From UHGV virus genome UHGV-0086334: a DNA stretch of 34,222 nt, one strand, 5' to 3'. Each line of letters opens with the position of its first letter. Position 1 is the first letter of the stretch. Of this stretch, positions 5,031-34,222 are shown in pieces. The stretch is from a virus. A program made the position numbers and the translations under genes. Under the pieces are notes generated by a model that did no database searches, was not told where the DNA came from, and worked only from the letters and a program-made list of their open reading frames with translations.

Positions 5031-5092
5031 TTCCGCGCAGCCGCAAAATCGGTTGCCGGGATTTGCACCCCGGATATCTAAAAGGCGACAAC

Positions 5093-5112
5093 GACGCGCC
5101 AGCGTCTTTTTT
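5093..5112 (+). terminator. Intrinsic terminator-like hairpin
   Basis: GACGC-gcca-GCGTC followed by TTTTTT, about 60 nt downstream of the promoter and before the antirepressor gene. Confidence 0.5.
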
Positions 5113-5272
5113 ATTGTCGTGCGCACAGCCACATCCGCGATTTATGGTGGGGCGTGTAGGGGAGTCGAAAGGCTCGCCGGGTCCTTTTAGCCGGTAGTGC
5201 AAACCCTGCATGTCTCACCACCCAAAGATTTGCACCTGAGGGGGGTGATTATCCGACTAAAAGGAAATCGCT

Positions 5273-18923: not shown

Positions 18924-19180
18924 GGTAACCGATTTGACCATTTAGTTGCGCGCCAGTTGTTCTGAACCATAATCTCCTGAAGTATCTCATCTGAAGGCTC
19001 TGCTTCGCCGCTTAACCATTCTCGTAAAGTTGAACAATTTAGATAAGATGAGTTTGCACGATAAAAAGATACGATGGCGTCCTCTGATAACTTCTCAGGA
19101 AACTTTTTTGGATCAGCTTCTTTTAATATTACGCTCATTAAGGCTTCAATTTTTTCTCTGTTCATTTTTTGCGTTCTCAT
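18920..19180 (-). CDS. Hypothetical protein (86 aa)
   Basis: ORF track; opposite strand between lysis genes and cos, the position lambdoid phages use for morons; weak RBS. Confidence 0.3.
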   Translation of the reverse strand: MRTQKMNREKIEALMSVILKEADPKKFPEKLSEDAIVSFYRANSSYLNCSTLREWLSGEAEPSDEILQEIMVQNNWRATKWSNRLP

Positions 19181-19423: not shown

Positions 19424-19470
19424 CGCGGGTCCTTTCTGGTATCCAAAATACCGAGGGTCGGTAGACGCGC
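19424..19470 (+). promoter_or_regulatory. Putative cos region of the resident prophage (diverged)
   Basis: GCGGGTCCTTTCTGGTATCC resembles my recollection of lambda cosQ-proximal sequence; GGGTCGGTAGAC sits where the 12-nt cohesive end would be, about 70 bp before the small terminase. Confidence 0.35.
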
Positions 19471-19534
19471 AAAAACTCACTCGTTTTTAGTATTTTTTCA
19501 TTTTGGGTATTTCCGGTTCCGGTGAGGATTTTTA

Positions 19535-20101
19535 ATGGCAAGTCAGGCTGAGGTCGCAGCACATTTACTGCTATCTGATCGTCGTCTGCGCGATCTTGCA
19601 AAACTTCCGGGAGCCCCAGTCCCCCAAGGACGTGGCGATTGGGAACTTGACGCATGGCGCCATTTTTATATTCGTTATCTCCGGAGCAATAGACGCGACA
19701 CAACTAGTAATGACGAACCGGAAGCGGGGGACAATTCTCCCGAAAAAAATCGCGAGCAGTGGTTGAAAAATGAGGAACGGCAGGAGCGAATCCTGATGGC
19801 TCGCGTGAAACGCCGCATTCTTGCTAAACGCTACGCGCCAATTGAATTAATCAGCGTAGCTGTATCTCGCGTCGCAGTTGAATTACGTACCCGTGTCGAA
19901 TCGTGGCCACCACGGTTAAAAAAGGTGTGGCCGGAAATGCCGCAGGAGGCGAGCAGTGTATTACGAGAGGAGCTGGCAATAGCCCTGAATGAACTGGCAG
20001 ACATACGAATCGACTTCAGCGATTACGATGTCAGCGATATCGAACGCGATCTCGACAGGGTTGAATCCCTTGCGCGTGACGATACCGATGACGGGGGTTG
20101 A
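19535..20101 (+). CDS. Terminase small subunit (Nu1-type, diverged)
   Basis: 188 aa immediately upstream of and overlapping the large terminase; N-terminal winged-HTH-like region. Confidence 0.6.
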   Translation: MASQAEVAAHLLLSDRRLRDLAKLPGAPVPQGRGDWELDAWRHFYIRYLRSNRRDTTSNDEPEAGDNSPEKNREQWLKNEERQERILMARVKRRILAKRYAPIELISVAVSRVAVELRTRVESWPPRLKKVWPEMPQEASSVLREELAIALNELADIRIDFSDYDVSDIERDLDRVESLARDDTDDGG

Positions 20102-21950
20102 GTGGGCTGATAAACATTTTTATCTTCCCGAAGGCTCAAGCCATATTGCTGGCCACTGGACGACTCAGCCGGTCCAGGTAGTGATGTTAAATATGATGAC
20201 TAACGACGCGATAAAAATCGTGTCTGTTCGCAAATCAGCTCGTCTCGGTTATACAAAAATACTCGTCGCGGCGCTGCTCTATTTCGCTGAGCACAAAAAA
20301 CGTAGTGCCGTGGTCTATCAGCCTATCGATGACGAATCGGATGGATTTGTCGCCGACGAGGTTGACCCCGCTATCGCCGAAATGCCGGTGATTCAGAAAA
20401 TTTTCCCAGACTGGGATAAAAGCAACGAGCGTAACAATCTCCAGCGCAAAGAGATGAGCGGCGCAATTATTGATTTTCGCGGCGCGAGTACGCCGGGGAA
20501 TTTTCGTCGACTGACGAAACAGGTTGTCGAAGGTGACGAGGTCGACGGCTGGCCGCTGGAGGTCGCTAAAAAAGGTAAAGGCGAAGGCTCGCCAATTGAG
20601 CTGGCGCTCGTTCGAATTAAGGGCGCAGCATACCCGAAAGCGATTTTTGGTTCGACGCCGACCGTTACTGGCAAAAGCCATATAGAAATGTTGGAAGACG
20701 CGGCTGATCTGACGTTTCGTTTTTACCTGAAGTGTCCGCATTGTGGCGAGGAGCAGGTCCTGGTATTTGGTTTCGACGGTATCGAATACGGTCTCAAGTG
20801 GGATGACAGCCTGCAGACCAACGAGTCGAAATCGTCGTCCGCGTATTACCAGTGCTGCCACTGCCCGGAGCATTTTTACTATCGCGATCTCGAAAAAATG
20901 GAGCTCGGGGGGCGCTGGATAGCCGAGGACTGCACCTGGACCCGAGACGGAATCCATTTTTTTGATCATGACAGTGACGTCGTTCGCGCGCCGAAACACG
21001 CGGCGATCGTGATAAACGCCCTGTATTCACTAAACCTTGATGGATGGGGCGAGATTGTCAGCGAGTGGCTGAAAGCGAAGGGCGACCCACTCAAAGAAAA
21101 AACGTTTCATAACACGACGCTCGGCGAGCTTTGGAGCGACGTGGCCAGCGAGCAGCTGGAGCACGATATTCTGGTTAATCGCCGGGAAAAATACGCCAGC
21201 CAGGTTCCTGACGGTGTTGTTTATATAACCGGCGGCATCGACTCTCAGACGTCCGGGCGCTACGAGTGTTACGTGTGGGGCTGGGGAGCTGAGGAAGAGT
21301 GCTGGCTGATTGATAAAACAATCGTCCTCGGTCGCTACGACGAAGAGGACACGCTGCAGCGTGTCGACGGAGTGATTCGCAAACAATACCGGCGCAGCGA
21401 CGGGACCACAATCGGCGTCAGCCGCTGGGCGTGGGATACCGGCGGTATAGATGCGCAGGTTGTTTATAACCGCTCGCTGAAACTCGGTCCGCTGTGGGTC
21501 ATTCCAATTAAAGGCGCAAGCTCATACGGCCAGCCAGTCGTAAATATGCCGCGTACACGTAACGCGAATAAAGTTTATTTGTCGTTAATCGGTACTGACA
21601 CAGCAAAAGATTTGCTCGCGATGCGCCTGCCACTGGAACCAGACCCAAAATCAGCGACACCGGGTGCAATTCATTTTCCAAACGACGACGAAATATTCGG
21701 CACAACAGAGGCAAAACAGCTCGTCTCTGAAGTTCTGATCCCGAAACTCATTAACGGTCGCGTCGTTTACCGCTGGGACAACCAGGGGCGGCGAAATGAG
21801 GCGCTCGACTGCTGGGTATACGGGCTGGCAGCGCTGCGTATCAGTAAAATTCGTTTCCAGCTCAATCTCGAGACGCTCGCTGAGCAACGGAAAAAATCAC
21901 AAAACAAACTGTCTCTCGAGGAGATGGCGAGAATGCTCGGAGGGAGCTAA
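19989..21950 (+). CDS. A: Terminase large subunit, lambda gpA-like
   Basis: 653-aa ORF; GVEWADKHFYLPEGS, CPHCGEEQ, KTFHNTTLGELW, WDTGGID, VIPIKGAS, RRNEALDC, LAALRISK blocks match my recollection of lambda gpA; true start may be an internal Met (20028 or 20088). Confidence 0.9.
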   Translation: MNWQTYESTSAITMSAISNAISTGLNPLRVTIPMTGVEWADKHFYLPEGSSHIAGHWTTQPVQVVMLNMMTNDAIKIVSVRKSARLGYTKILVAALLYFAEHKKRSAVVYQPIDDESDGFVADEVDPAIAEMPVIQKIFPDWDKSNERNNLQRKEMSGAIIDFRGASTPGNFRRLTKQVVEGDEVDGWPLEVAKKGKGEGSPIELALVRIKGAAYPKAIFGSTPTVTGKSHIEMLEDAADLTFRFYLKCPHCGEEQVLVFGFDGIEYGLKWDDSLQTNESKSSSAYYQCCHCPEHFYYRDLEKMELGGRWIAEDCTWTRDGIHFFDHDSDVVRAPKHAAIVINALYSLNLDGWGEIVSEWLKAKGDPLKEKTFHNTTLGELWSDVASEQLEHDILVNRREKYASQVPDGVVYITGGIDSQTSGRYECYVWGWGAEEECWLIDKTIVLGRYDEEDTLQRVDGVIRKQYRRSDGTTIGVSRWAWDTGGIDAQVVYNRSLKLGPLWVIPIKGASSYGQPVVNMPRTRNANKVYLSLIGTDTAKDLLAMRLPLEPDPKSATPGAIHFPNDDEIFGTTEAKQLVSEVLIPKLINGRVVYRWDNQGRRNEALDCWVYGLAALRISKIRFQLNLETLAEQRKKSQNKLSLEEMARMLGGS

Positions 21951-22183: not shown

Positions 22184-23003
22184 CTGCTCCACAGCAGCTG
22201 CTCGGGCCTGACGGTAAAACGCCACTACGCCGTTTTGCGGGGTATAACGGCGGCGGTCCCGGTTTCGGTGGCCAGCTGATTGACTGGAATGCGCCACAGC
22301 AAAGCGCCGATGCGGCACTGCTGCCTAATTTTTATCGCGGTAACGCGCGAGCAGACGATCTCGTTCGCAATAACGGTGTCGCGTCGAACGCCGTGCAGCT
22401 GCACCAGGATCATATTGTCGGCAATCTGTTTAAATTGAGTTATCGCCCTAACTGGCGTTACCTAGGGATATCTCGCGAGGACGCCAGGGCGCTGGCGCGT
22501 GACGTTGAGGTCGCGTGGACTGAATACGCTGAGGACCCTCACTGCACGATTGATATCGAGCGGAAACGGACGTTCACAATGATGATCCGCGAGGGTGTGG
22601 CCACTCACGCGTTTAACGGTGAAACCTGCGTACAACCGGTCTGGGAAAGCAGTACCGGTAGCGTTTTTCGGACGCGATTCAAAATGGTTTCGCCGAAACG
22701 GATTCGAAATCCGGGTTACGCAGCTGACACCCGATTTCGCCGCGCCGGTGTTGATATCGATAAAAATGGAGCCGCAGTGGGCTACTGGATAGCCGAGGAC
22801 ACCTATCCACTCGGTGGAATCGGCAAGTGCCGGCGTATACCAGCGCAGCTCAGCAGCGGCAGACACGCATTCATTCACATATTCGAGCCGCTCGAGGACG
22901 GACAGACCCGCGGAGATAACATTTTCTACAGCGTGATGGAGCGTCTGAAAATGCTCGACACGCTGCAGCAAACACAACTGCAGAGCGCCATTGTGAAGGC
23001 GAT
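22180..23003 (+). pseudogene. B: Portal protein (lambda gpB-like), 5' fragment interrupted by insertion
   Basis: LLGPDGKTPLRRFAGYNGGGPGFGGQL, LLPNFYRGNARADDLVRNNG, KRTFTMMIREGVATHAFNGE, DGQTRGDNIFYSVMERLKMLDTLQQTQLQSAIVKA match lambda gpB; after codon ...VKA the frame reads IYVYHLTVVARIVRQLH and stops at 23055. Confidence 0.85.
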
Positions 23004-23203: not shown

Positions 23204-24445
23204 ATGGCTATTGAAAACAAACTCAGTGACAAACTGTTAAAGAGTCTTGTCGGAAAACGGCAGGACAAACAAAAAACAATAGCGGATGGGCGCGGGTTGT
23301 CTGTGCGTGTAAGCATGGTTGGGGGGATCAGCTTTGTTTTTTACTATCGTCTTGGTGGCAGGGAATCCCCTCCGGTATGGCTTACACTTGGTCGCTATCC
23401 TGACATGTCTCTTGCAACGGCCAGGCGCATGCGTGATCAGTGCCGTGAATGGCTGGCTGAAAATCTGGACCCCCGCAGGCAAATAAAACTTGCTGCCGAA
23501 AAAACTATGCAACCAGTGACCGTAAGGGATGCGCTGTTTTACTGGTACGACAATCACGCCACAACAGCCAGAAAAGAGCATGAATATTTAATAAAACGAT
23601 TTGAAAAGCATATCTTCCCCTATATCGGTGATATGGCTATAGAACAGTGCAAATTACACACATGGCTTACCGTCTTTGACAGGATCAAAAAAAATGCGCC
23701 TGTTATGTCTGGTGCAATTTTTCTTGATATCAAACAGGCGTTGCGTTTTTGTCGCGTCAGGCAATACATCGCGTGCGATCCCTTTGGAGATATTAACGTA
23801 AGTTATGTCGGGCGCTCATCCGGTATAAGGGATCGCGTTCTTAATATCAATGAAACCGCTGATGTATGGTCTTATGCTTACGGTAATAATTTGCTAACTC
23901 TGTCATCAATATATAACCGAAGAATAATGGTTATCTGCCTGGTGTTTGGTTGCCGACAGCAGGAGGCGAGGCTATCCACTTGGGACGAATGGGATTTAAA
24001 AAACTGGGTATGGACAGTCCCAAAAGAGCACAGCAAAAACAAGGAGGCTATAGTAAGGCCTGTTCCTGACGGAATAAAACAATGGATCGTTAATCTTTAC
24101 GCAGAAACAAAAAATCGCGGTTATGTTGTCGGTTGTGCTTTGCAAAGGGCGACAATAACAGGGGCTGCAAACAGAATATGCAGGCGTCTTGGTCATGATA
24201 CTAATGGCTTGTGGTGCATACATGATTTCAGGCGCACATTTTCCACTACGCTTAATGATATGGGGGCGGATCCTTATATTGTCGAACTTCTTTTAGGTCA
24301 TAAAGTGAAAGGGGTTGCTGGTGTTTACAATAAAAGCAGGCATATAAAGAAAAAACTTGAGGTGCTTAATATGTGGGTTAATTACCTTAATACGATAGCA
24401 GGATTTAACAACAACGTTATCGAGCTTAATAAAGAGGTGGTGTGA
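23204..24445 (+). CDS. int: Tyrosine integrase, P4-type
   Basis: 413 aa; N-terminal LSDKLLKSL...DGRGLSVRVS arm-binding-type domain, catalytic blocks HDFRRTFST and LLGH...VYNK. Confidence 0.9.
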   Translation: MAIENKLSDKLLKSLVGKRQDKQKTIADGRGLSVRVSMVGGISFVFYYRLGGRESPPVWLTLGRYPDMSLATARRMRDQCREWLAENLDPRRQIKLAAEKTMQPVTVRDALFYWYDNHATTARKEHEYLIKRFEKHIFPYIGDMAIEQCKLHTWLTVFDRIKKNAPVMSGAIFLDIKQALRFCRVRQYIACDPFGDINVSYVGRSSGIRDRVLNINETADVWSYAYGNNLLTLSSIYNRRIMVICLVFGCRQQEARLSTWDEWDLKNWVWTVPKEHSKNKEAIVRPVPDGIKQWIVNLYAETKNRGYVVGCALQRATITGAANRICRRLGHDTNGLWCIHDFRRTFSTTLNDMGADPYIVELLLGHKVKGVAGVYNKSRHIKKKLEVLNMWVNYLNTIAGFNNNVIELNKEVV

Positions 24446-24446
24446 T

Positions 24447-24704
24447 ATGGCAATTTATTCTCTTGTTGATGAAAACGATTTGCGCACAATGAAGGACATT
24501 GATCGGTTCATTCGTGAAAAAGAGTGCATAGCACTTACCACGCTGGCAAACTCAACACGCTGGAAAATGGAGCAGGCAGGTAAATTCCCGCGACGTATCA
24601 AGATCGGTGAACGTGCTGCAGGGTATCGACTTTCAGAGGTTCAGGCATGGATCCGTGGTGAGTGGCATCCTGGATGGAAACCTGGAAAAACAAAACAGCA
24701 ATAA
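24447..24704 (+). CDS. AlpA-family DNA-binding regulator/excisionase-like
   Basis: 85 aa; RWKMEQAGKFPRRIKIGERAAGYRLSEVQAWI is the AlpA-type winged HTH; directly follows int. Confidence 0.7.
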   Translation: MAIYSLVDENDLRTMKDIDRFIREKECIALTTLANSTRWKMEQAGKFPRRIKIGERAAGYRLSEVQAWIRGEWHPGWKPGKTKQQ

Positions 24705-26974: not shown

Positions 26975-27274
26975 ATGGAAATGAAAAATTCTGGCTTTAT
27001 TGCCAGCGGCCCCGCTCGACCTGAATTTATGAACGGCGATATTTACCGCGATAAATACGGCGGCACGGTAACGATTAAAGGCGTGGCAGAACGGCGCATC
27101 ACTTACCGCCGTGAGGGGTATAGCTATGACTGCGTGATGCCTGTTTATCAGTTCCGGCGTGATTTTTCCCTGGTATATGCCGCACCCCGCAGTAAATCCA
27201 TCAGCAGGGAAAAAGCGTGGGGAAATATCCAGAAAATGAAAACCATGATTAACGGATTCAGAGGTAAAAAATGA
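26975..27274 (+). CDS. Hypothetical protein
   Basis: 99-aa ORF with GAGGAA RBS; stop overlaps primase start. Confidence 0.45.
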   Translation: MEMKNSGFIASGPARPEFMNGDIYRDKYGGTVTIKGVAERRITYRREGYSYDCVMPVYQFRRDFSLVYAAPRSKSISREKAWGNIQKMKTMINGFRGKK

Positions 27275-29025
27275 AACTGGCACCGAACGTAAAACAGCAG
27301 TCACGCGGCATAAAACACAAAGGAACAGAAGTAATTATTTTTGCGGGTAGTGATGCCTGGGCACACGCGAAACAATGGCAGGAACATGATGCGCGTATGG
27401 CCGGAGATAATGAGCCTCCTGTGTGGCTTGGGGAGCAGCAGCTATCCGAACTGGATAATCTGCAAATTGTGCCGGAAGGCCGAAAATCAGCACGCATATA
27501 CAGGGCCGGATATCTTGCGCCTGTAATGATAAAGGCGATTGGTCAGAAGCTGGCGGCAGCAGGCGTACAGGATGCAAATTTTTATCCTGAGGGTATGCAC
27601 GGCCAGGAGGTGCAGAACTGGCGCGAATATCTGGCCCGTGAACGCCAGAATCTTTCTGATGGTCTGGTCATTGAGCTTCCGGTAAAGCAAAAGGCGCAAC
27701 TTTCGCAGATGGCGGACAGTGAGCGCGCGCAGTTGCTTGCCGATCGCTTTGATGGCGTTTGCGTACATCCTGAAAGTGAAATCGTTCACGTATGGCGCGG
27801 CGGGGTATGGTGTCCGGTCAGCACAATGGAACTTAGCCGCGAAATGGTGGCGATCTATTCAGAGCACAGGGCCACTTTCAGCAAGCGCGTAATCAATAAC
27901 GCCGTGGAAGCGTTAAAAGTTATTGCCGAACCAATGGGCGAGCCGTCTGGCGATTTGCTGCCGTTCGCCAATGGTGCGCTTGACCTGAAAACGGGGGAAT
28001 TTTCCCCGCACACGCCGGAGAACTGGATCACCACGCACAACGGCATTGAGTACACGCCACCAGCACCAGGGGAGAACATCCGCGATAACGCGCCAAACTT
28101 TCATAAATGGCTTGAGCACGCAGCCGGAAAAGACCCGCGCAAGATGATGCGTATATGTGCCGCGCTGTACATGATTATGGCGAACCGGTACGACTGGCAG
28201 ATGTTTATTGAGGCCACCGGAGACGGCGGGAGCGGTAAAAGTACATTCACACACATAGCCAGCCTTCTGGCAGGGAAACAGAACACGGTAAGCGCTGAAA
28301 TGACATCGCTTGATGATGCTGGTGGACGTGCGCAGGTTGTCGGGAGTCGTCTTATCGTCCTGGCTGACCAGCCGAAATATACAGGCGAAGGAACGGGCAT
28401 CAAGAAAATCACAGGCGGCGACCCCGTGGAAATTAACCCGAAATATGAAAAGCGTTTCACGGCGGTAATCAGGGCGGTGGTGCTGGCGACCAACAACAAC
28501 CCGATGATATTCACCGAACGGGCCGGAGGTGTGGCACGTCGTCGCGTGATTTTCCGTTTCGACAATATCGTCAGTGAGGCCGAAAAAGACAGGGAGCTAC
28601 CGGAAAAGATTGCGGCTGAAATCCCCGTTATTATCCGCCGATTGCTGGCGAACTTTACCGACCCTGAGAAGGCACGGGCTTTACTACTGGAACAGCGTGA
28701 CGGTGATGAAGCACTGGCAATAAAGCAACAGACGGATCCGGTTATTGAGTTTTGCCAGTTCCTGAATTTTCTGGAGGAAGCGCGCGGCCTGATGATGGGT
28801 GGCGGTGGTGATTCAGTGAAGTACACGACCAGGAACAGCCTTTACCGCGTCTATCTGGCGTTTATGGCATACGCGGGCAGGAGCAAACCGCTAAACGTGG
28901 CTGAGTTCAGCAAGGCCATGAAGCCAGCGGCGAAAGTTTACGGGCATGAATATATTACGCGAAAAGTTAAGGGAGTAACGCAGACCAACGCAATTACAAC
29001 AGACGATTGCGACGCGTTTTTATAA
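27271..29025 (+). CDS. Primase-helicase (P4 alpha / PICI Pri-Rep-like), SF3 helicase domain
   Basis: 584 aa; Walker A GDGGSGKSTF, RLIVLADQ Walker B-like, D5-type C-terminal region; followed by iterons. Confidence 0.85.
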   Translation: MKLAPNVKQQSRGIKHKGTEVIIFAGSDAWAHAKQWQEHDARMAGDNEPPVWLGEQQLSELDNLQIVPEGRKSARIYRAGYLAPVMIKAIGQKLAAAGVQDANFYPEGMHGQEVQNWREYLARERQNLSDGLVIELPVKQKAQLSQMADSERAQLLADRFDGVCVHPESEIVHVWRGGVWCPVSTMELSREMVAIYSEHRATFSKRVINNAVEALKVIAEPMGEPSGDLLPFANGALDLKTGEFSPHTPENWITTHNGIEYTPPAPGENIRDNAPNFHKWLEHAAGKDPRKMMRICAALYMIMANRYDWQMFIEATGDGGSGKSTFTHIASLLAGKQNTVSAEMTSLDDAGGRAQVVGSRLIVLADQPKYTGEGTGIKKITGGDPVEINPKYEKRFTAVIRAVVLATNNNPMIFTERAGGVARRRVIFRFDNIVSEAEKDRELPEKIAAEIPVIIRRLLANFTDPEKARALLLEQRDGDEALAIKQQTDPVIEFCQFLNFLEEARGLMMGGGGDSVKYTTRNSLYRVYLAFMAYAGRSKPLNVAEFSKAMKPAAKVYGHEYITRKVKGVTQTNAITTDDCDAFL

Positions 29026-29313: not shown

Positions 29314-29628
29314 ATGCGCATACATAAAAATCACTTAACAAACATGCCAGCCGAAAACATGAATCAGGGGCGACAAATGACCAAAATTCGCAGAGACAGA
29401 ACACAGGCAAAATATAAAGCGTTAGACATGACAGAGCTTTCCTTAAAGGTGGCAATCAAAGCGATAGACCACCACACACGGGCAGGATACGCGAAGGAAC
29501 ATCCCGACCTGATAAGCGCATTTATGACCACAGCAGCGGCAAACTTTGCCACGCTGACAGAACGGGAGATTGCCGAAGCGGAACAGGTGACAACCATCAA
29601 TGTTAAAACCGGAGAGCAGACAGCATGA
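29314..29628 (+). CDS. Hypothetical protein
   Basis: ORF track 104 aa; likelier start ATG 29377 (AGGGG RBS). Confidence 0.45.
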   Translation: MRIHKNHLTNMPAENMNQGRQMTKIRRDRTQAKYKALDMTELSLKVAIKAIDHHTRAGYAKEHPDLISAFMTTAAANFATLTEREIAEAEQVTTINVKTGEQTA

Positions 29629-30047
29629 CAGCACAGATAGCGGCTTACGGGCGGCTGGTGGCTGACCCGCAGTTAAAGACCACCAGCAAAGGGACACAAA
29701 TGGCGATGGCGAGTATGGCGGTTCCCCTGCCGTGCAGCCAGGCAGATGACGGAACGGCGACGATGTGGTTATCCGTCCTGGCGTTTGGCAGACAGGCCGA
29801 CGCACTGGCAAAACACCACAAAGGCGAACTGGTGAGCGTGGCGGGTAACATGCAGGTAAGCCAGTGGACAGGCCAGAACGGCGAAACGCGGCGGGGCTGG
29901 CAGGTTATCGCAGACAGCGTAATCAGTGCGCGAACGGCGCGACCGGGCGGCAAAAAAGGCCAGCAGGGGCAGGCCACTGACGCACTGAACAGGGCAAAAC
30001 AACAGTCGGGGAATGATGATCCGTACGGCGATAATATACCGTTTTAA
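29625..30047 (+). CDS. Single-stranded DNA-binding protein (SSB-like)
   Basis: 140 aa; YGRLVADPQLKTT, TMWLSVLAFGRQA, Gly/Gln-rich linker and acidic tail ending DDPYGDNIPF. Confidence 0.7.
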   Translation: MTAQIAAYGRLVADPQLKTTSKGTQMAMASMAVPLPCSQADDGTATMWLSVLAFGRQADALAKHHKGELVSVAGNMQVSQWTGQNGETRRGWQVIADSVISARTARPGGKKGQQGQATDALNRAKQQSGNDDPYGDNIPF

Positions 30048-30258: not shown

Positions 30259-31305
30259 ATGAGTATGGTTGATTTATATTCGCCTACACAGCTTGTGCAG
30301 GTGGCTAATGCTGAAGATGTGCAAAAAAAATTAAATGCGTTGTTTACCAGTTTGTTTTTCACTCGCTCGGTAATGTTTGAATCGAGAGACATTATTCTTG
30401 ATACGATCGACGATCCAAATATCCCGATCGCGGCGTTTTGCTCTCCTATGGTGGGCAGTAAAGTTTCACGAGATGAGGGATACGAATCAAAAACAATTCG
30501 TCCAGGTTATATGAAGCCGAAAAGCAGCATTGATCCAAATAAGTTAGCTGTGCGCCCTGCTGGTGTGTCACCTGAGCAATACAATGCTTTTGGGGCGCGT
30601 AATATTAAAGTTAAACAGGCGATTGTAAATCAGGCTAAAGCTATTCGTGCACGTATTGAATGGCTTGCTGTTCAGGCAATCACAACGGGGAAAAATATCA
30701 TTGAGGGCGATGGTATTGAACGTTATGAGCTGGACTGGAATATAAAACCACAAAATATCATCACTCAGTCTGGCGGTACTGAGTGGTCAGGTAAGGATAA
30801 AGAAACTTTTGATCCAAATGATGATATTGAGAGCTACGCAGAATTTAGTGAGGGCGTCACTAATATCATCATTATGGGTGGTAATGTATGGAAGAAATAC
30901 CGTTCATTCAGAGCGATAAAAGAGGCTTTGGATACCCGTCGTGGTTCTAATTCCGAACTGGAAACGGCCCTTAAAGACCTTGGTGATTCGGTGAGTTTTA
31001 AAGGGTATATGGGCGATGTTGCGATTGTTGTTTACAGCGGGCGTTATACCGACGAGGACGGAACAGAAAAACATTTCCTTGATCCTGATTTGATGGTGCT
31101 TGGCAATACGGCTCTTCAGGGGATTGTCGCCTATGGCGGTATTCAGGATCCGGAGCTAATCCGAATGGGGCTGACTAAAGCCGAACTTGCACCGAAAAAC
31201 TATATTGTGCCTGGTGATCCGGCTATTGAATATGTGCAGACACATTCAGCACCACAGCCAATACCGGCCCGCATCAATCGTTTTGTTACCGTTCGCATTG
31301 GCTAA
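30259..31305 (+). CDS. E: Major capsid protein, lambda gpE-like
   Basis: Starts MSM as lambda gpE does; IITQSGGTEWSGKDKETFDPNDDIESYA, FRAIKEALDTRRGSNSELETALKDLG, GDVAIVVYSGRY, MVLGNT match my recollection of lambda gpE. Confidence 0.85.
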   Translation: MSMVDLYSPTQLVQVANAEDVQKKLNALFTSLFFTRSVMFESRDIILDTIDDPNIPIAAFCSPMVGSKVSRDEGYESKTIRPGYMKPKSSIDPNKLAVRPAGVSPEQYNAFGARNIKVKQAIVNQAKAIRARIEWLAVQAITTGKNIIEGDGIERYELDWNIKPQNIITQSGGTEWSGKDKETFDPNDDIESYAEFSEGVTNIIIMGGNVWKKYRSFRAIKEALDTRRGSNSELETALKDLGDSVSFKGYMGDVAIVVYSGRYTDEDGTEKHFLDPDLMVLGNTALQGIVAYGGIQDPELIRMGLTKAELAPKNYIVPGDPAIEYVQTHSAPQPIPARINRFVTVRIG

Positions 31306-31314
31306 GGGGGAGCA

Positions 31315-31656
31315 ATGGCTACTCATTACACTGAACTCATGGCTGGCACTGAAGCACTGGTGACTACGCTGGGGATATTTTCAGCTAATAAAGGGGTAAT
31401 TCCTGCATTTACGCCACTGATGCAGGAAGATGCAACAGGTGCACTGGTGGTATGGGATGGTTCGAGCGTAGGTAAAGCGGTTTATGTTTCCGCTGTACAA
31501 ATCGACACCGCGAAAAAAATACAGGCTCAGGTCTATAAGACAGGTGTCTTAAATGTTGATGCTCTGAACTGGCCTGAGTCTGTTAAAGAACTGTCAGTAA
31601 AGGTTGCAGCGTTTGTTGGCTCAGGTATTTCTGTTCAGCCGCTGGCTCGTGTGTAA
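31315..31656 (+). CDS. D: Capsid decoration protein, lambda gpD-like
   Basis: 113 aa; FTPLM, LVVWDGSSVGKAV, YKTGV, WPES, AAFVGSGISV match lambda gpD blocks. Confidence 0.75.
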   Translation: MATHYTELMAGTEALVTTLGIFSANKGVIPAFTPLMQEDATGALVVWDGSSVGKAVYVSAVQIDTAKKIQAQVYKTGVLNVDALNWPESVKELSVKVAAFVGSGISVQPLARV

Positions 31657-31667
31657 AGGGGGATACA

Positions 31668-32051
31668 ATGCAGAATGATTACAATGACCTTAAGCCAATT
31701 GCCGAAATGATGTACCCGAATCCAGCTGTAGAGGAATTAAAAGCTATCGCTGACAAAATGTGTTTAAGCGAGCGCCTTGTTGATATGAATCAGGTGATGG
31801 AAATTACAACCCTGAGTCGTCGTACACTGCTAAACCTTGAGGCTAGTGGAGAGTTCCCGGAGCGTGTGCAGGTTACGGAAGGGCGTAAGGCCTGGTATTT
31901 AAGTGAAGTGATCGACTGGATAAATAATATTCCTCGCGCTTCTGAATATTGCCGCGTACCTGTCCCAAAAAAGCCAGATGCGGCGCTATGCCTCAAGATT
32001 GAGCGTGTACGCCGCAATGCACGGGATGGTCGCTATAAGCTGATTGGTTGA
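31668..32051 (+). CDS. AlpA-family HTH protein
   Basis: 127 aa; VMEITTLSRRTLLNLEASGEFPERVQVTEGRKAWYLSEVIDWI is an AlpA-type HTH; AGGGGG RBS. Confidence 0.6.
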   Translation: MQNDYNDLKPIAEMMYPNPAVEELKAIADKMCLSERLVDMNQVMEITTLSRRTLLNLEASGEFPERVQVTEGRKAWYLSEVIDWINNIPRASEYCRVPVPKKPDAALCLKIERVRRNARDGRYKLIG

Positions 32052-32074: not shown

Positions 32075-32135
32075 GGCGGGTCCTTTCCGGTGATCCGGTA
32101 GGCTACGGGGCGGCGACCTCGCGGGTTTTCGCTAT
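32075..32135 (+). other. Lambda-type cos site of the inserted element
   Basis: GGGTCCTTTCCGGTGATCCGGTAGGCTACG then GGGCGGCGACCT (32108..32119) then CGCGGGTTTTCGCTATTTATGA; the 12-mer is the lambda cohesive-end sequence as I recall it, and the flanks match lambda's right and left ends. Confidence 0.75.
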
Positions 32136-32252
32136 TTATGAGCCTTTTTCGGGTGCTGGTGGTGGTTTTGTTGTTCGCTCTATCTCTATGAATAAAAAGG
32201 AAAAGATAAAGCCAATACACCAACCTGAAACATTACTTAAGTGGGGATATTG

Positions 32253-32795
32253 ATGAAATCGCACCTGATGAACAAAAAAAACATGGCGCAAAGCTGCCGT
32301 GTAAGTGCGACAGCGTTCGACAAGTGGGGAGTGACTCCCGTTGAACGTAAAGGCCGCGAGGCGTTTTATGATGTTGCCAGCGTAATAGACAATCGGGTTA
32401 GCAATGCAATTAACCAGATTACAGACGACAAAGGCGAGATTGATGATGATGAACTCCTACGAGTCAGGATCAGATTGCTGACAGCACAGGCAGAGGCGCA
32501 GGAGCTTAAAAACGAGCGCGAACGCGGCGACGTTATTGATACAGCGTTTTGTATATACGTGCTTTCAAAATTGGCGAGTCAGATTTCTTCAATCATGGAC
32601 AGCCTGCCGCTTGCCATGACAAGGAAGTTTCCCGACATGAAGCCGTCTATGCTGGATGGACTGAAAAAAGAAGTTATCAGAGCCTGTAACGCATGCGCAA
32701 AACTTGACGAAAACATACCGCTGATGCTGTCCGATTATCTGATGGAAACTGCCGGAAACGTACCGGATAAGTTGCAGCCGAATAAAGATAAGTAA
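32253..32795 (+). CDS. Nu1: Terminase small subunit, lambda Nu1-like
   Basis: LLTAQAEAQELKNERERGDVIDTAFCIYVLSKLASQISSIMDSLPLAMTRKFPDM...KLDENIPLMLSDYL aligns closely with lambda Nu1 C-terminal half; N-terminus MNKKNMAQ resembles Nu1 MEVNKKQLA; start could be ATG 32268. Confidence 0.8.
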   Translation: MKSHLMNKKNMAQSCRVSATAFDKWGVTPVERKGREAFYDVASVIDNRVSNAINQITDDKGEIDDDELLRVRIRLLTAQAEAQELKNERERGDVIDTAFCIYVLSKLASQISSIMDSLPLAMTRKFPDMKPSMLDGLKKEVIRACNACAKLDENIPLMLSDYLMETAGNVPDKLQPNKDK

Positions 32796-32806
32796 CGTAG
32801 TACGCT

Positions 32807-33088
32807 ATGACTGAATCCGAAATACTGCGATTAATCCGCCGTGCTTGTGGAATCAGCAAGCAGCATGACGAACAGGCCACGCAGCCGGACAGCGTGACCG
32901 CAGATAATTATGTGCGTGTAGTGGCTGAGGTGATGCGCCGTGACGGTATTGAGCTTAACGGCGTGGATATGCGCAACATACGAACAAGAGTCCTTGAGTT
33001 GCTGGCATATCGTCGCCGTTCTCAACAACGGAGGGAGAGCGCGAAAAATACTTACCAGTGGAAGAAGCCGGAACGATTGCGGCGGTAA
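32807..33088 (+). CDS. Hypothetical protein
   Basis: 93-aa ORF, Arg-rich C-terminus. Confidence 0.4.
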   Translation: MTESEILRLIRRACGISKQHDEQATQPDSVTADNYVRVVAEVMRRDGIELNGVDMRNIRTRVLELLAYRRRSQQRRESAKNTYQWKKPERLRR

Positions 33089-33344
33089 CTTGCTGATATT
33101 CCCGATAACGCAAAATTGCGCTGGCTGACTTGTTGCATTGCAAAAAGTTAAGCAGGAAGGCACGGCCTGTAAGATGGGATGCAGTAAGTAGTTCAAGGCT
33201 ACCTTGTGCTGGCACGCACAGTTAAGCCGTCGGTGCTGGATATCCCCCACTGGGGGAAAAGCTGGCTACATCCCTCACATCTGAGGACTGATAACGCGAC
33301 ATTGCGCTGGCTGGCAAAGTGCAAAATTGCACGATGGCCTAACC

Positions 33345-33494
33345 CATTGATTATTTCGAAAACCTGCAATGCAGGAAATCGGGGAAGTAAGCCTAAGCTA
33401 TTGATTGTTTCGAAAACCCCCATTGGGGGATGTCGGGAAAGTAAGACTAACCCATTGATTCTTCCACAATCCTCAATTTGAGGAGGCCGGAACG
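33345..33494 (+). repeat. Three phased 54-bp tandem repeats, each with a central 13-bp palindrome
   Basis: Unit CATTGATT-n-TTCGAAAACC-palindrome-GGGAAGTAAG; palindromes CCTGCAaTGCAGG (33363), CCCCCAtTGGGGG (33417), CCTCAAtTTGAGG (33471) exactly 54 bp apart. Confidence 0.6.
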
Positions 33495-33801
33495 TCTACA
33501 TAGCTGCATCGCCGTAATGATGATTCAGCCCACCAGCCAAATCAGCACAGCAACGACAGAATAGCCCGACACAGAAAAACCACGAATATGGGGTTTTTGT
33601 TATGACATGGTCATGATGACCACTCATACAAAACAGGTAAAGCCCACCAGCCTGATTAAAGGTTAACCGGAAAAAAGCCAGGTATCCAATCTCGATATGG
33701 GGATCCCTATATCGACATTAACGCCCACTAAAACTGTGCATATATGCATAGAAAAAGCATCCACCAGCTTTATGACGGATGCCGCTCATCTTATAAATAA
33801 T

Positions 33802-33897: not shown

Positions 33898-33912
33898 AAG
33901 GCGATGTATGCC
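33898..33912. other. attR core of inserted element
   Basis: AAGGCGATGTATGCC; portal reading frame resumes here (K-A-M-Y-A-A-T-I-E-S-E-L-D). Confidence 0.6.
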
Positions 33913-34167: not shown

Positions 34168-34222
34168 TAGACTGGCCCCCTGAATCTCCAGACAACCAAT
34201 ATCACTTAAATAAGTGATAGTC
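34168..34222 (+). mobile_element. Terminal ~55 bp of an IS2-like insertion sequence (continues beyond window)
   Basis: TAGACTGGCCCCCTGAATCTCCAGACAACCAATATCACTTAAATAAGTGATAGTC matches my recollection of the IS2 terminus; portal homology ends abruptly here. Confidence 0.65.

Follow-up and report, generated by a model that had tools for sequence, protein, structure and literature searches.

The candidate packaging module considered here lies at positions 32078-32795 of a 34,222-nucleotide stretch of the UHGV virus genome UHGV-0086334 (hereafter the window), inside an element integrated in the portal gene of a resident Escherichia coli prophage, and several described systems are close to it. Helper-embedded phage-inducible chromosomal islands (HE-PICIs) were presented as a class by Tommasini, Mageeney and Williams in 2023 (PMC10111431); the supplementary tables of that paper list, under the site group B_Phage_portal_2_241, elements of about 11 kb whose att identity is 'aaggcgat', and its main text mentions terS, the gene for the small terminase subunit (TerS), solely as missing from the model element 11capE. 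Among the PICIs of Escherichia coli, EcCIIHE3034 is reported to 'encode TerS' (Fillol-Salom et al. 2018, PMC6092414), and EcCICFT073 possesses the Rpp system (Fillol-Salom et al. 2019, PMC6739421; Murialdo and Feiss 2022, PMC9026076). The Rpp adaptor is the sole case in which packaging redirection by a Gram-negative, cos-type satellite has been worked out; TerS-bearing PICIs of E. coli are listed, and the searchable papers report neither a helper nor a recognition site for any of them. The TerS encoded by Staphylococcus aureus pathogenicity islands (SaPIs) pairs with the large terminase subunit (TerL) of the helper to package satellite DNA (PMC6092414), but it serves headful (pac) packaging in a Gram-positive system and belongs to an unrelated TerS family, whereas the element in the window is of the cos type and its TerS is of the Nu1 family.

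Comparison with the HE-PICIs of site group B:Phage_portal_2:241 reveals a common att sequence, a size of about 11 kb, co-oriented insertion in a lambdoid portal gene, and the same order of integration, Bro, replication and late zones. Because its att core AAGGCGAT is the att identity listed for this group, the element is assigned to it on sequence grounds as a helper-embedded PICI. It differs in possessing a private cos and terS, with which the group is not described in the main text of PMC10111431. The initial annotation had described a satellite with its own cos and TerS and no TerL, and this description holds: the AAGGCGAT-bounded element encodes no portal, protease or TerL, its structural and packaging homologues being limited to proteins like lambda gpE and gpD and to TerS. 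With a probability of roughly 0.6, positions 32078-32795 may be read as the packaging module of a helper-embedded PICI, composed of a lambda-type cosQ and cosN, a private cosB and a full-length orphan TerS.

The cos of the island

The cohesive end GGGCGGCGACCT at 32108-32119 is identical to that of lambda and has its single exact match in the whole window there, on the + strand, against a chance expectation of about 0.004 matches for an exact 12-mer in 2 x 34 kb. The sequence GGGTCCT at 32078-32084 (+ strand), 30 nucleotides upstream of the nick as in lambda, corresponds to positions 48473-48479 of lambda, which we take to be cosQ. When the element was compared with the joined ends of lambda NC_001416, using the nick as anchor, 63 of the 66 positions between -31 and +34 were identical, in keeping with the lambda-like flanks on both sides that the initial annotation had noted. 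The presence of a lambda-type cosQ and cosN in the element is confirmed. Over a 64-bp core, this cos has 61/64 identity to lambda, compared to 54-56/64 for other PICI cos sites, and is the most lambda-like of them.

Past +36, identity to lambda is at background level (13/27, 25/60, 23/80), and alignment beyond that point finds none of the lambda cosB sites R3-I1-R2-R1. In a BLASTN search of 50,697 phage records, the alignments were confined to window 32076-32152 and to the cos of lambda and lambda-like phages, at 88-92% identity and E ~1e-20. Since similarity ends at +36, cosB is private. The cos regions of orphan-TerS satellites of E. coli (three variants), Kosakonia, Superficieibacter, an Enterobacter-type lineage and Citrobacter were aligned: cosQ (retained in all 10 regions), bp 23-35 (CGCTATTTATGAG) and bp 49-68, a block that reads YWGGTGGTGGTKTTGTTRTT, are common to all, except that one GGT repeat of the block is missing in one E. 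coli variant. The bases beside this block are variable, as is the 12-nucleotide end (GGGCGGCGACCT, GGGCGTCGACCT, GGGCGGCAGACT, GGGCGGCAGCGT). The satellites differ in their cosB from lambda, from N15 and from the phage relatives that were examined.

In the window the block reads CTGGTGGTGGTTTTGTTGTT (32156-32175, + strand, bp 49-68 from the cohesive end). The cosB of N15 consists of a single R3 site, located at bp 48-60 by linker scanning (PMC9026076), and the block overlaps the position of this site (GAGGTTGTTGTTT), which fits the N15-like DNA-binding domain of the island TerS (see below). The block is therefore proposed as a candidate equivalent of R3. A second conserved cosB block, CAATACACCAACCTG at 32213-32227 (+ strand, bp 106-120), reads CAATACACCNACYTG in four genera and is degenerate in the fifth, the Enterobacter-type loci; its interpretation as an inverted, R2-like copy of the first block was rejected, as the 10/15 match is reached in 6.6% of shuffles (p ~0.07). 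A scan for promoters and terminators around cos and TerS yielded nothing exceeding the expectation from shuffles.

EcCICFT073 resembles the window in that its cosQ and cosN are lambda-like, its cosB is different, and genes for capsid (c1499) and decoration (c1500) proteins lie upstream. Its cos1 (L021:22600-22625) carries CACCACCACCAC at the same distance from cosN as window 32156-32175. The reverse complement of the EcCICFT073 block, GTGGTGGTGGTGT, matches the GGTGGTGGTGT core of the TerS-type islands, so the same motif appears to occur, inverted, in islands with an unrelated specificity protein.

The orphan small terminase

The terS gene (32253-32795, + strand) encodes 180 amino acids from an ATG start, or 184 from an alternative GTG at 32241. 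It begins 145 bp downstream of the nick, bearing out the prediction of a small terminase within 150 bp. Pfam Phage_Nu1 (PF07471) matches residues 70-152 (3.5e-24, 85.7 bits, cut-off 30), phrog_57 'terminase small subunit' spans the full length (3e-51), and end-to-end identity to lambda Nu1 is 38% (E 2e-36). The best match among phage records is gp1 of N15, with 47.6% identity overall; no TerS more than 48% identical was found in the phage collection searched. No large terminase gene was found after TerS or anywhere else in the element.

The resemblance is unevenly distributed along the protein. Residues 1-50, the DNA-binding region, have 59% identity to N15 gp1, 38% to Nu1, 30% to the 21-type TerS and 14% to the TerS of the resident prophage; for the central residues 76-119 the corresponding values are 52%, 57%, 45% and 14%, and for residues 120-167, the tail that aligns with the TerL-binding end of Nu1, they are 42%, 40%, 38% and 17%. 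A further 13 residues extend beyond the aligned tail. By these identities the protein is best described as a mosaic of an N15-like DNA-binding domain, a Nu1-like centre and a divergent tail. The initial annotation had the whole C-terminal half closely resembling Nu1, which is correct for residues 76-119 but not for the last ~48 aligned residues, the region that binds TerL in lambda. N15 itself shares with the element a lambda-like cosN, a short cosB and a G/T-rich site at bp 48-60; however, its gp1 is followed by its own TerL, whereas the TerS of the element is an orphan, and the C-terminal part of gp1 (aligned residues 120-167) is far closer to lambda's than that of the island is.

The family profile of the island TerS reaches residues 6-101 of lambda TerS (PDB 6HN7_B) at 7.6e-6; a single-sequence phmmer search of PDB chains matched neither Nu1 nor Rpp. 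The order of secondary structure elements predicted for the DNA-binding domain is strand, helix, helix, hairpin, helix, in an AlphaFold2 model of low confidence (18-sequence family alignment, pLDDT 57.6, pTM 0.27).

Within the TerS family of E. coli PICIs, residues 1-119 are 88-96% identical to the window (about 80% in two divergent variants), and the tails fall into discrete types with 52-81% identity to the window tail. Comparison of the window with EcCIIHE3034 gives dN/dS of 0.15-0.25 in both halves of the gene, which places both parts under purifying selection, and a dS that rises from 0.25 in the front to 1.1 in the tail. From this difference in dS, the tail (window 32610-32795, residues 120-180) appears to be an older-diverged allele that was joined to the front by recombination. 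TerS relatives with 46% identity or less are every one followed by an overlapping TerL, and hence are phage genes. A scan of contigs for relatives with the single TerS protein returned no matches; an alignment-based scan returned mainly TerS-TerL pairs of phages, plus two orphan-TerS satellites. The assembly collection has 5,609 indexed blocks with this very protein.

EcCIIHE3034 has a late cassette like that of the window (capsid, decoration, small open reading frame (ORF), cos, 180-aa TerS, 93-aa ORF), and its cosB is nearly identical to that of the window, the +49 to +68 block included. Its TerS is 79% identical overall and 91-96% identical in the DNA-binding and central domains, whereas the tail is only 54% identical. 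It also differs in its site, which is chromosomal, between cspD and clpS, rather than in a prophage, and in its cosQ-cosN spacer, which is of the EcCICFT073 type and leaves the core cos at 55/64 identity to lambda.

Proposed mechanism of packaging

cosQ and cosN would be the parts of cos that the TerL of the helper reads and cuts, and the N15-like winged-helix domain of the island TerS would read the private cosB, for which the +49 to +68 block is the best candidate site. Upon induction of a lambda-type helper, the island is expected to excise, repairing the portal gene, and to replicate; its TerS may then bind the island cosB and recruit the TerL of the helper through the part that aligns with the TerL-binding end of Nu1, and TerL would nick the lambda-type cosN, feeding island concatemers into heads built by the helper. 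Four 10.9-kb units amount to 43.6 kb, 90% of the lambda genome, which is within the packaging limits of lambda. The module occupies the position of the Rpp adaptor in EcCICFT073, yet would act independently of the helper's own TerS. That an orphan TerS beside a private cosB redirects the TerL of a helper is the role expected by analogy with SaPI TerS and PICI Rpp (PMC6092414, PMC6739421, PMC9026076).

Several points weigh against this mechanism. The putative TerL-docking tail is equally distant (~40%) from Nu1, N15 and 21-type TerS and bears a 13-residue extension, and its binding to lambda gpA is putative. The R3-like block is recognised by conservation and position alone, and at a pLDDT of 57.6 the fold of the DNA-binding domain draws its support from sequence homology only. 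EcCIIHE3034, the only TerS-type E. coli PICI tested, was transferred at <1-40 per ml after mitomycin treatment of its own strain (PMC6092414, Table 1), so no helper is known for it. Lastly, many of the composites of prophage and island look decayed, and some copies may no longer be mobile.

The main rival is a mode of action like that of Rpp, in which the island TerS forms mixed oligomers with Nu1 through the central domain, Nu1 is drawn off the phage cosB, and TerL arrives by way of the Nu1 tail. Likeness to Nu1 is indeed highest in the central domain (57%, against 40% in the tail), the position of terS is that of rpp in EcCICFT073, where the specificity gene likewise directly follows cos1 and precedes a 93-aa ORF, and Rpp works through heterocomplexes with TerS, transfer of EcCICFT073 requiring the phage TerS (PMC6739421, PMC6092414). 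However, RppA of EcCICFT073, identified by its 5e-31 match to RppC (PDB 6HLK), has 144 residues, lacks the TerL-binding tail and needs the phage TerS, whereas the island TerS is homologous to Nu1 over its full length; Rpp proteins in general have 144-153 residues and are 30-40 residues shorter than lambda-like TerS (PMC9026076). The island TerS is not of the Rpp kind (~144-153 aa, homologous to RppA, RppB or RppC, no TerL-binding tail): the region aligned with the TerL-binding end of Nu1 is retained and under purifying selection, BLASTP gives no alignment with RppA, and phmmer gives no match with RppC 6HLK among PDB chains at E<=1. An Rpp-like mode is accordingly judged unlikely, and direct recruitment of TerL by the island TerS is preferred.

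A further PICI, located beside a tRNA-Ile gene (L020), was considered as an Rpp comparator and set aside, as its cos is of another type and its DUF1441 protein matches neither RppC (phmmer, PDB chains) nor the window TerS. Its cos (L020:10270-10998) has the flavour GGGTCCTCCCGGTGAGG...CACGGGGCGGGAGCGGC, and the 161-aa DUF1441 protein follows cos in the slot of TerS or Rpp, 5' of the same 93-aa ORF, which suggests that specificity proteins of a third type exist in this cassette.

The helper phage

The initial annotation had proposed that the cognate helper is a phage more lambda-like than the resident prophage, and this is strongly supported by comparison with other integrated copies. The element was followed in ten contexts returned from the assembly collection (L004-L013) and in strain N66. 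In the ten contexts, it is flanked by lambdoid prophage head genes with split portal fragments; wherever attL is intact (N66 and seven of the ten), the portal DNA is 97.6-99.3% identical to lambda gene B (8/8). Among the published attR flanks of the site group, 28 of 38 are of the lambda-B type, one (Eco7066.11) is of the window type and one belongs to Edwardsiella. In the three hosts that were examined (N66, STEC313 and L008), Nu1 and gpA are 99-100% and 99% identical to those of lambda, respectively, and a complete lambda cos is present. The assignment of the helper derives from the likeness of cosQ and cosN and from this association with hosts, not from the TerS tail.

Many of the decayed instances are probably immobile relics. 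Composite copies in L008, L006, L009 and L011 have suffered IS3-family insertions and deletions; a deletion in L008 joins the N-terminal part of the prophage portal directly to the capsid gene of the island, and L011 has deletions within the tail region of the prophage.

The window presents a different host. Its portal gene has 67% identity to lambda B, as against 93% to that of Escherichia phage vB_EcoM-705R4 (705R4), and the resident packaging region is 94% identical to the same phage. A sequence resembling cosQ, GGGTCCTTTC, lies at 19427 with the lambda spacing to an inferred cohesive end GGGTCGGTAGAC from ~19455 (cos at 19427-19466, + strand). The linear records of the Aeromonas phages phiARM81ld and PhAER-5 start at the base homologous to ~19455, the start GGGCGTTAGACC of phiARM81ld corresponding to GGGTCGGTAGAC of the window. 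The alignments with lambda and Nu1 that the initial annotation had recommended agree with its view that the resident cos and TerS are related to those of lambda but much more diverged: from cosQ through the cohesive end, identity to lambda is 23/53 for the resident cos and 50/53 for that of the element, while the resident TerS (19535-20101, + strand), a phrog_57 member (2e-39) without a Pfam Nu1 match, aligns with no more than 51 residues of Nu1, at 22% identity (E 2e-4), compared to the 38% of the element TerS, from which it differs widely (14-17% identity per domain). Given the lambda spacing of its cosQ, the ends of the Aeromonas phage records and its 23/53 identity, the resident cos is judged to be real and related, yet of another cohesive-end type.

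This type of cos and TerS (window 19427-19530; L015:1-90) is otherwise found in the Aeromonas phages phiARM81ld and PhAER-1/2/5, with which the resident prophage also shares a TTTCCGGTTCCGGT motif downstream of cos, just 5' of the TerS start; Vibrio phages give weaker matches to the resident TerS and TerL.

Could the resident, 705R4-like prophage nevertheless be a working helper, its TerL accepting the island TerS and cutting the lambda-type cosN? The island is embedded in the late operon and co-oriented with it, an arrangement proposed to couple an HE-PICI to its helper (PMC10111431), both cos sites have cosQ at the same spacing, and the HE-PICI member Eco7066.11, whose attR flank is of the 705R4 type like the window's, provides a published junction with the same type of host. 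Against this, the cohesive ends differ (GGGTCGGTAGAC and GGGCGGCGACCT, with the 23/53 and 50/53 identities to lambda given above), the resident TerL (19989-21950, + strand) has 42% identity to gpA and an N-terminus unlike that of gpA, the host type accounts for one of the 38 published junctions and the window junction occurs in none of 5,426 complete E. coli genomes (0/5,426), and the C-terminal part of the portal gene is also interrupted by an insertion sequence (IS) at 34171. Because its cohesive end and terminase differ from those of lambda, the resident prophage probably lacks the competence to package the island, and its service as a helper is considered improbable.

An origin of the window junction from a lambda-type composite recombining with a phage of the 705R4 type is ruled out, as both portal flanks in the window are of the 705R4 type. 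Since, in addition, 35 bp around the att core are identical between the portal genes of lambda (B) and 705R4, the island is concluded, from these flanks, to have inserted directly into the conserved target of a heterologous phage.

Finally, the notion that cos and TerS are a passively captured and now functionless piece of a helper late region, although PICI late zones are reported to capture late genes of prophages (PMC10111431) and many composites are decayed, is highly implausible given an intact TerS ORF under purifying selection (dN/dS 0.15-0.25), the joint conservation of cos and TerS in satellites of five genera, their private cosB differing from those of lambda, N15 and the phage relatives examined, and the lack of any TerS more than 48% identical in the phage records searched.

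Taken further, these observations may describe a second, Rpp-independent type of packaging theft, a proposal that we hold tentatively and at somewhat under even odds: an N15-type TerS would read a site common to several genera (CTGGTGGTGGTKTTGTTGTT, +49 to +68) and present a helper-matched cosN to TerL, the tail and the cosQ-cosN core would be swapped to follow helpers, and the range of integration would exceed the range of packaging, leaving the island stranded in, and disabling, a prophage such as that of the window. If so, the integrase targets any portal gene with the conserved 35-bp stretch, beyond the packaging range of the island. The window would then exemplify a mismatch between the integration site of an island and the phage able to package it, which bears on whether 'helper-embedded' should be read as helper-specific.

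The element class and its site group (PMC10111431) are already published, as are lambda-like cosQ and cosN with a foreign cosB in PICIs (PMC6092414, PMC6739421, PMC9026076) and TerS-bearing E. coli PICIs, and with the general principle also in print the gain is incremental. The TerS domain mosaic, the conserved R3-like block and the mismatch of integration range and packaging type were not found in the searchable literature; the additions made here are the putative cross-genus cosB block at +49 to +68 and the apparent exchange of TerS tails between satellites by recombination. The locus and its relatives offer a testable module, with a candidate cosB site, a conserved DNA-binding half of TerS and an exchangeable tail, and lambda-type composites such as those of strains N66 and STEC313 contain the cos of the helper and the cos of the satellite in one induction unit.

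Boundaries and genes of the island

The att cores lie at 22996-23003 (attL, within the resident portal gene) and 33898-33905 (attR, where the C-terminal part of the portal restarts), both on the + strand and 10,902 bp apart. Both portal halves are on the + strand; the N-terminal part is cut after ...SAIVKA plus junk residues, and joining the att flanks restores the portal frame ...SAIVKAMYAATIES..., as in the intact portal genes of 705R4 and lambda.

The gene order is int, AlpA, Bro-N, YlcI, Icd-like, small ORFs, DUF4222, D5_N primase, SSB, gpE-like, gpD-like, a second AlpA-family protein, cos, TerS and the 93-aa ORF, an arrangement that corresponds to those of EcCICFT073 and EcCIIHE3034. As in Gram-negative PICIs, int and AlpA are at the left end pointing inward and are followed by a replication module, the size falls within ~10-15 kb, and the set of phage structural and lysis genes is incomplete. 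The capsid-forming PICIs (cf-PICIs; 10.1101/2022.09.08.507074) are defined by a complete capsid and packaging set of portal, protease, head-tail connectors, TerL, capsid protein and TerS; the element, with E-like, D-like and TerS proteins alone, is not one of them.

The 413-aa integrase (23204-24445, + strand; Pfam Arm-DNA-bind_3 and Phage_integrase in the identical protein of L004-L013, annotated by PGAP as a tyrosine recombinase) has the accession WP_000963723 and also accompanies the element in lambda-B contexts. It is followed by AlpA (24447-24704), a D5_N/DUF5906 primase (27271-29025) and SSB (29625-30047). The gpE-like major capsid homologue (30265-31305, + strand; Pfam Phage_cap_E, 3.8e-41) is 42% identical to lambda E and 55% identical to c1499 of EcCICFT073, and the gpD-like head decoration homologue (31315-31656, + strand; Pfam HDPD, 3.7e-14) is 37% identical to lambda D over 78 residues.

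The gene immediately upstream of cos (31668-32051, + strand) encodes a second AlpA-family winged helix-turn-helix protein of 127 aa (Pfam Phage_AlpA 7.6e-9, phrog_2790 1e-49), which matches AlpA of PDB 8C3T (2e-9) and, in the search of PDB chains, not RppC. An unrelated 137-aa ORF occupies this position in EcCICFT073 and EcCIIHE3034, and the 127-aa AlpA-like version accompanies the TerS cassette in Enterobacter-type and Citrobacter islands.

Downstream of TerS, the 93-aa protein (32807-33088, + strand; phrog_1561) is a conserved companion of TerS as well as of Rpp among E. coli PICIs, with homologues after RppA in EcCICFT073 (L021:23374-23655) and after TerS in EcCIIHE3034. Between this ORF and attR are three tandem 54-bp repeats (33337-33498) with the short palindromes CCTGCAATGCAGG, CCCCCATTGGGGG and CCTCAATTTGAGG, and a 24-nucleotide direct repeat occurs at 33104 and 33290. 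The repeats resemble units at the right end of EcCICFT073 (L021 ~23690-23850) and could be integrase arm sites or another feature of attP.

Satellites of other genera

Enterobacter-type and Citrobacter satellites contain the same cassette of E-like, D-like and AlpA-like genes, cos and orphan TerS, and cos with an orphan TerS is also present in Kosakonia and Superficieibacter. In the Enterobacter-type and Citrobacter islands (L071-L075), the E-like, D-like and AlpA-like proteins have 346, 113 and 127 residues, and the islands are embedded in the capsid-E gene of the helper. They possess an orphan TerS, whereas the capsid-E model element 11capE is described by Tommasini et al. (PMC10111431) as having no terS. 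FRG and DUF3892 genes lie between TerS and attR in some of them.

Damage and early region of the resident prophage

The C-terminal part of the resident portal gene breaks off after ...LLRYVAA (window 34168-34222). The last 55 bases of the window are 100% identical to a sequence in >3,000 plasmids, including F (18938-18992), and look like the terminal repeat of an insertion sequence, which we take to be IS2. The end of the window is probably a contig break, and the resident prophage would have been damaged there a second time. In its early region, two RNAs match Rfam at gathering score: isrK at 5037-5112 (76 bits) and C4 antisense RNA at 5140-5225 (74 bits). They resemble the P4-type immunity RNAs mentioned for the Bro zones of PICIs, and are located in the prophage, not in the island.

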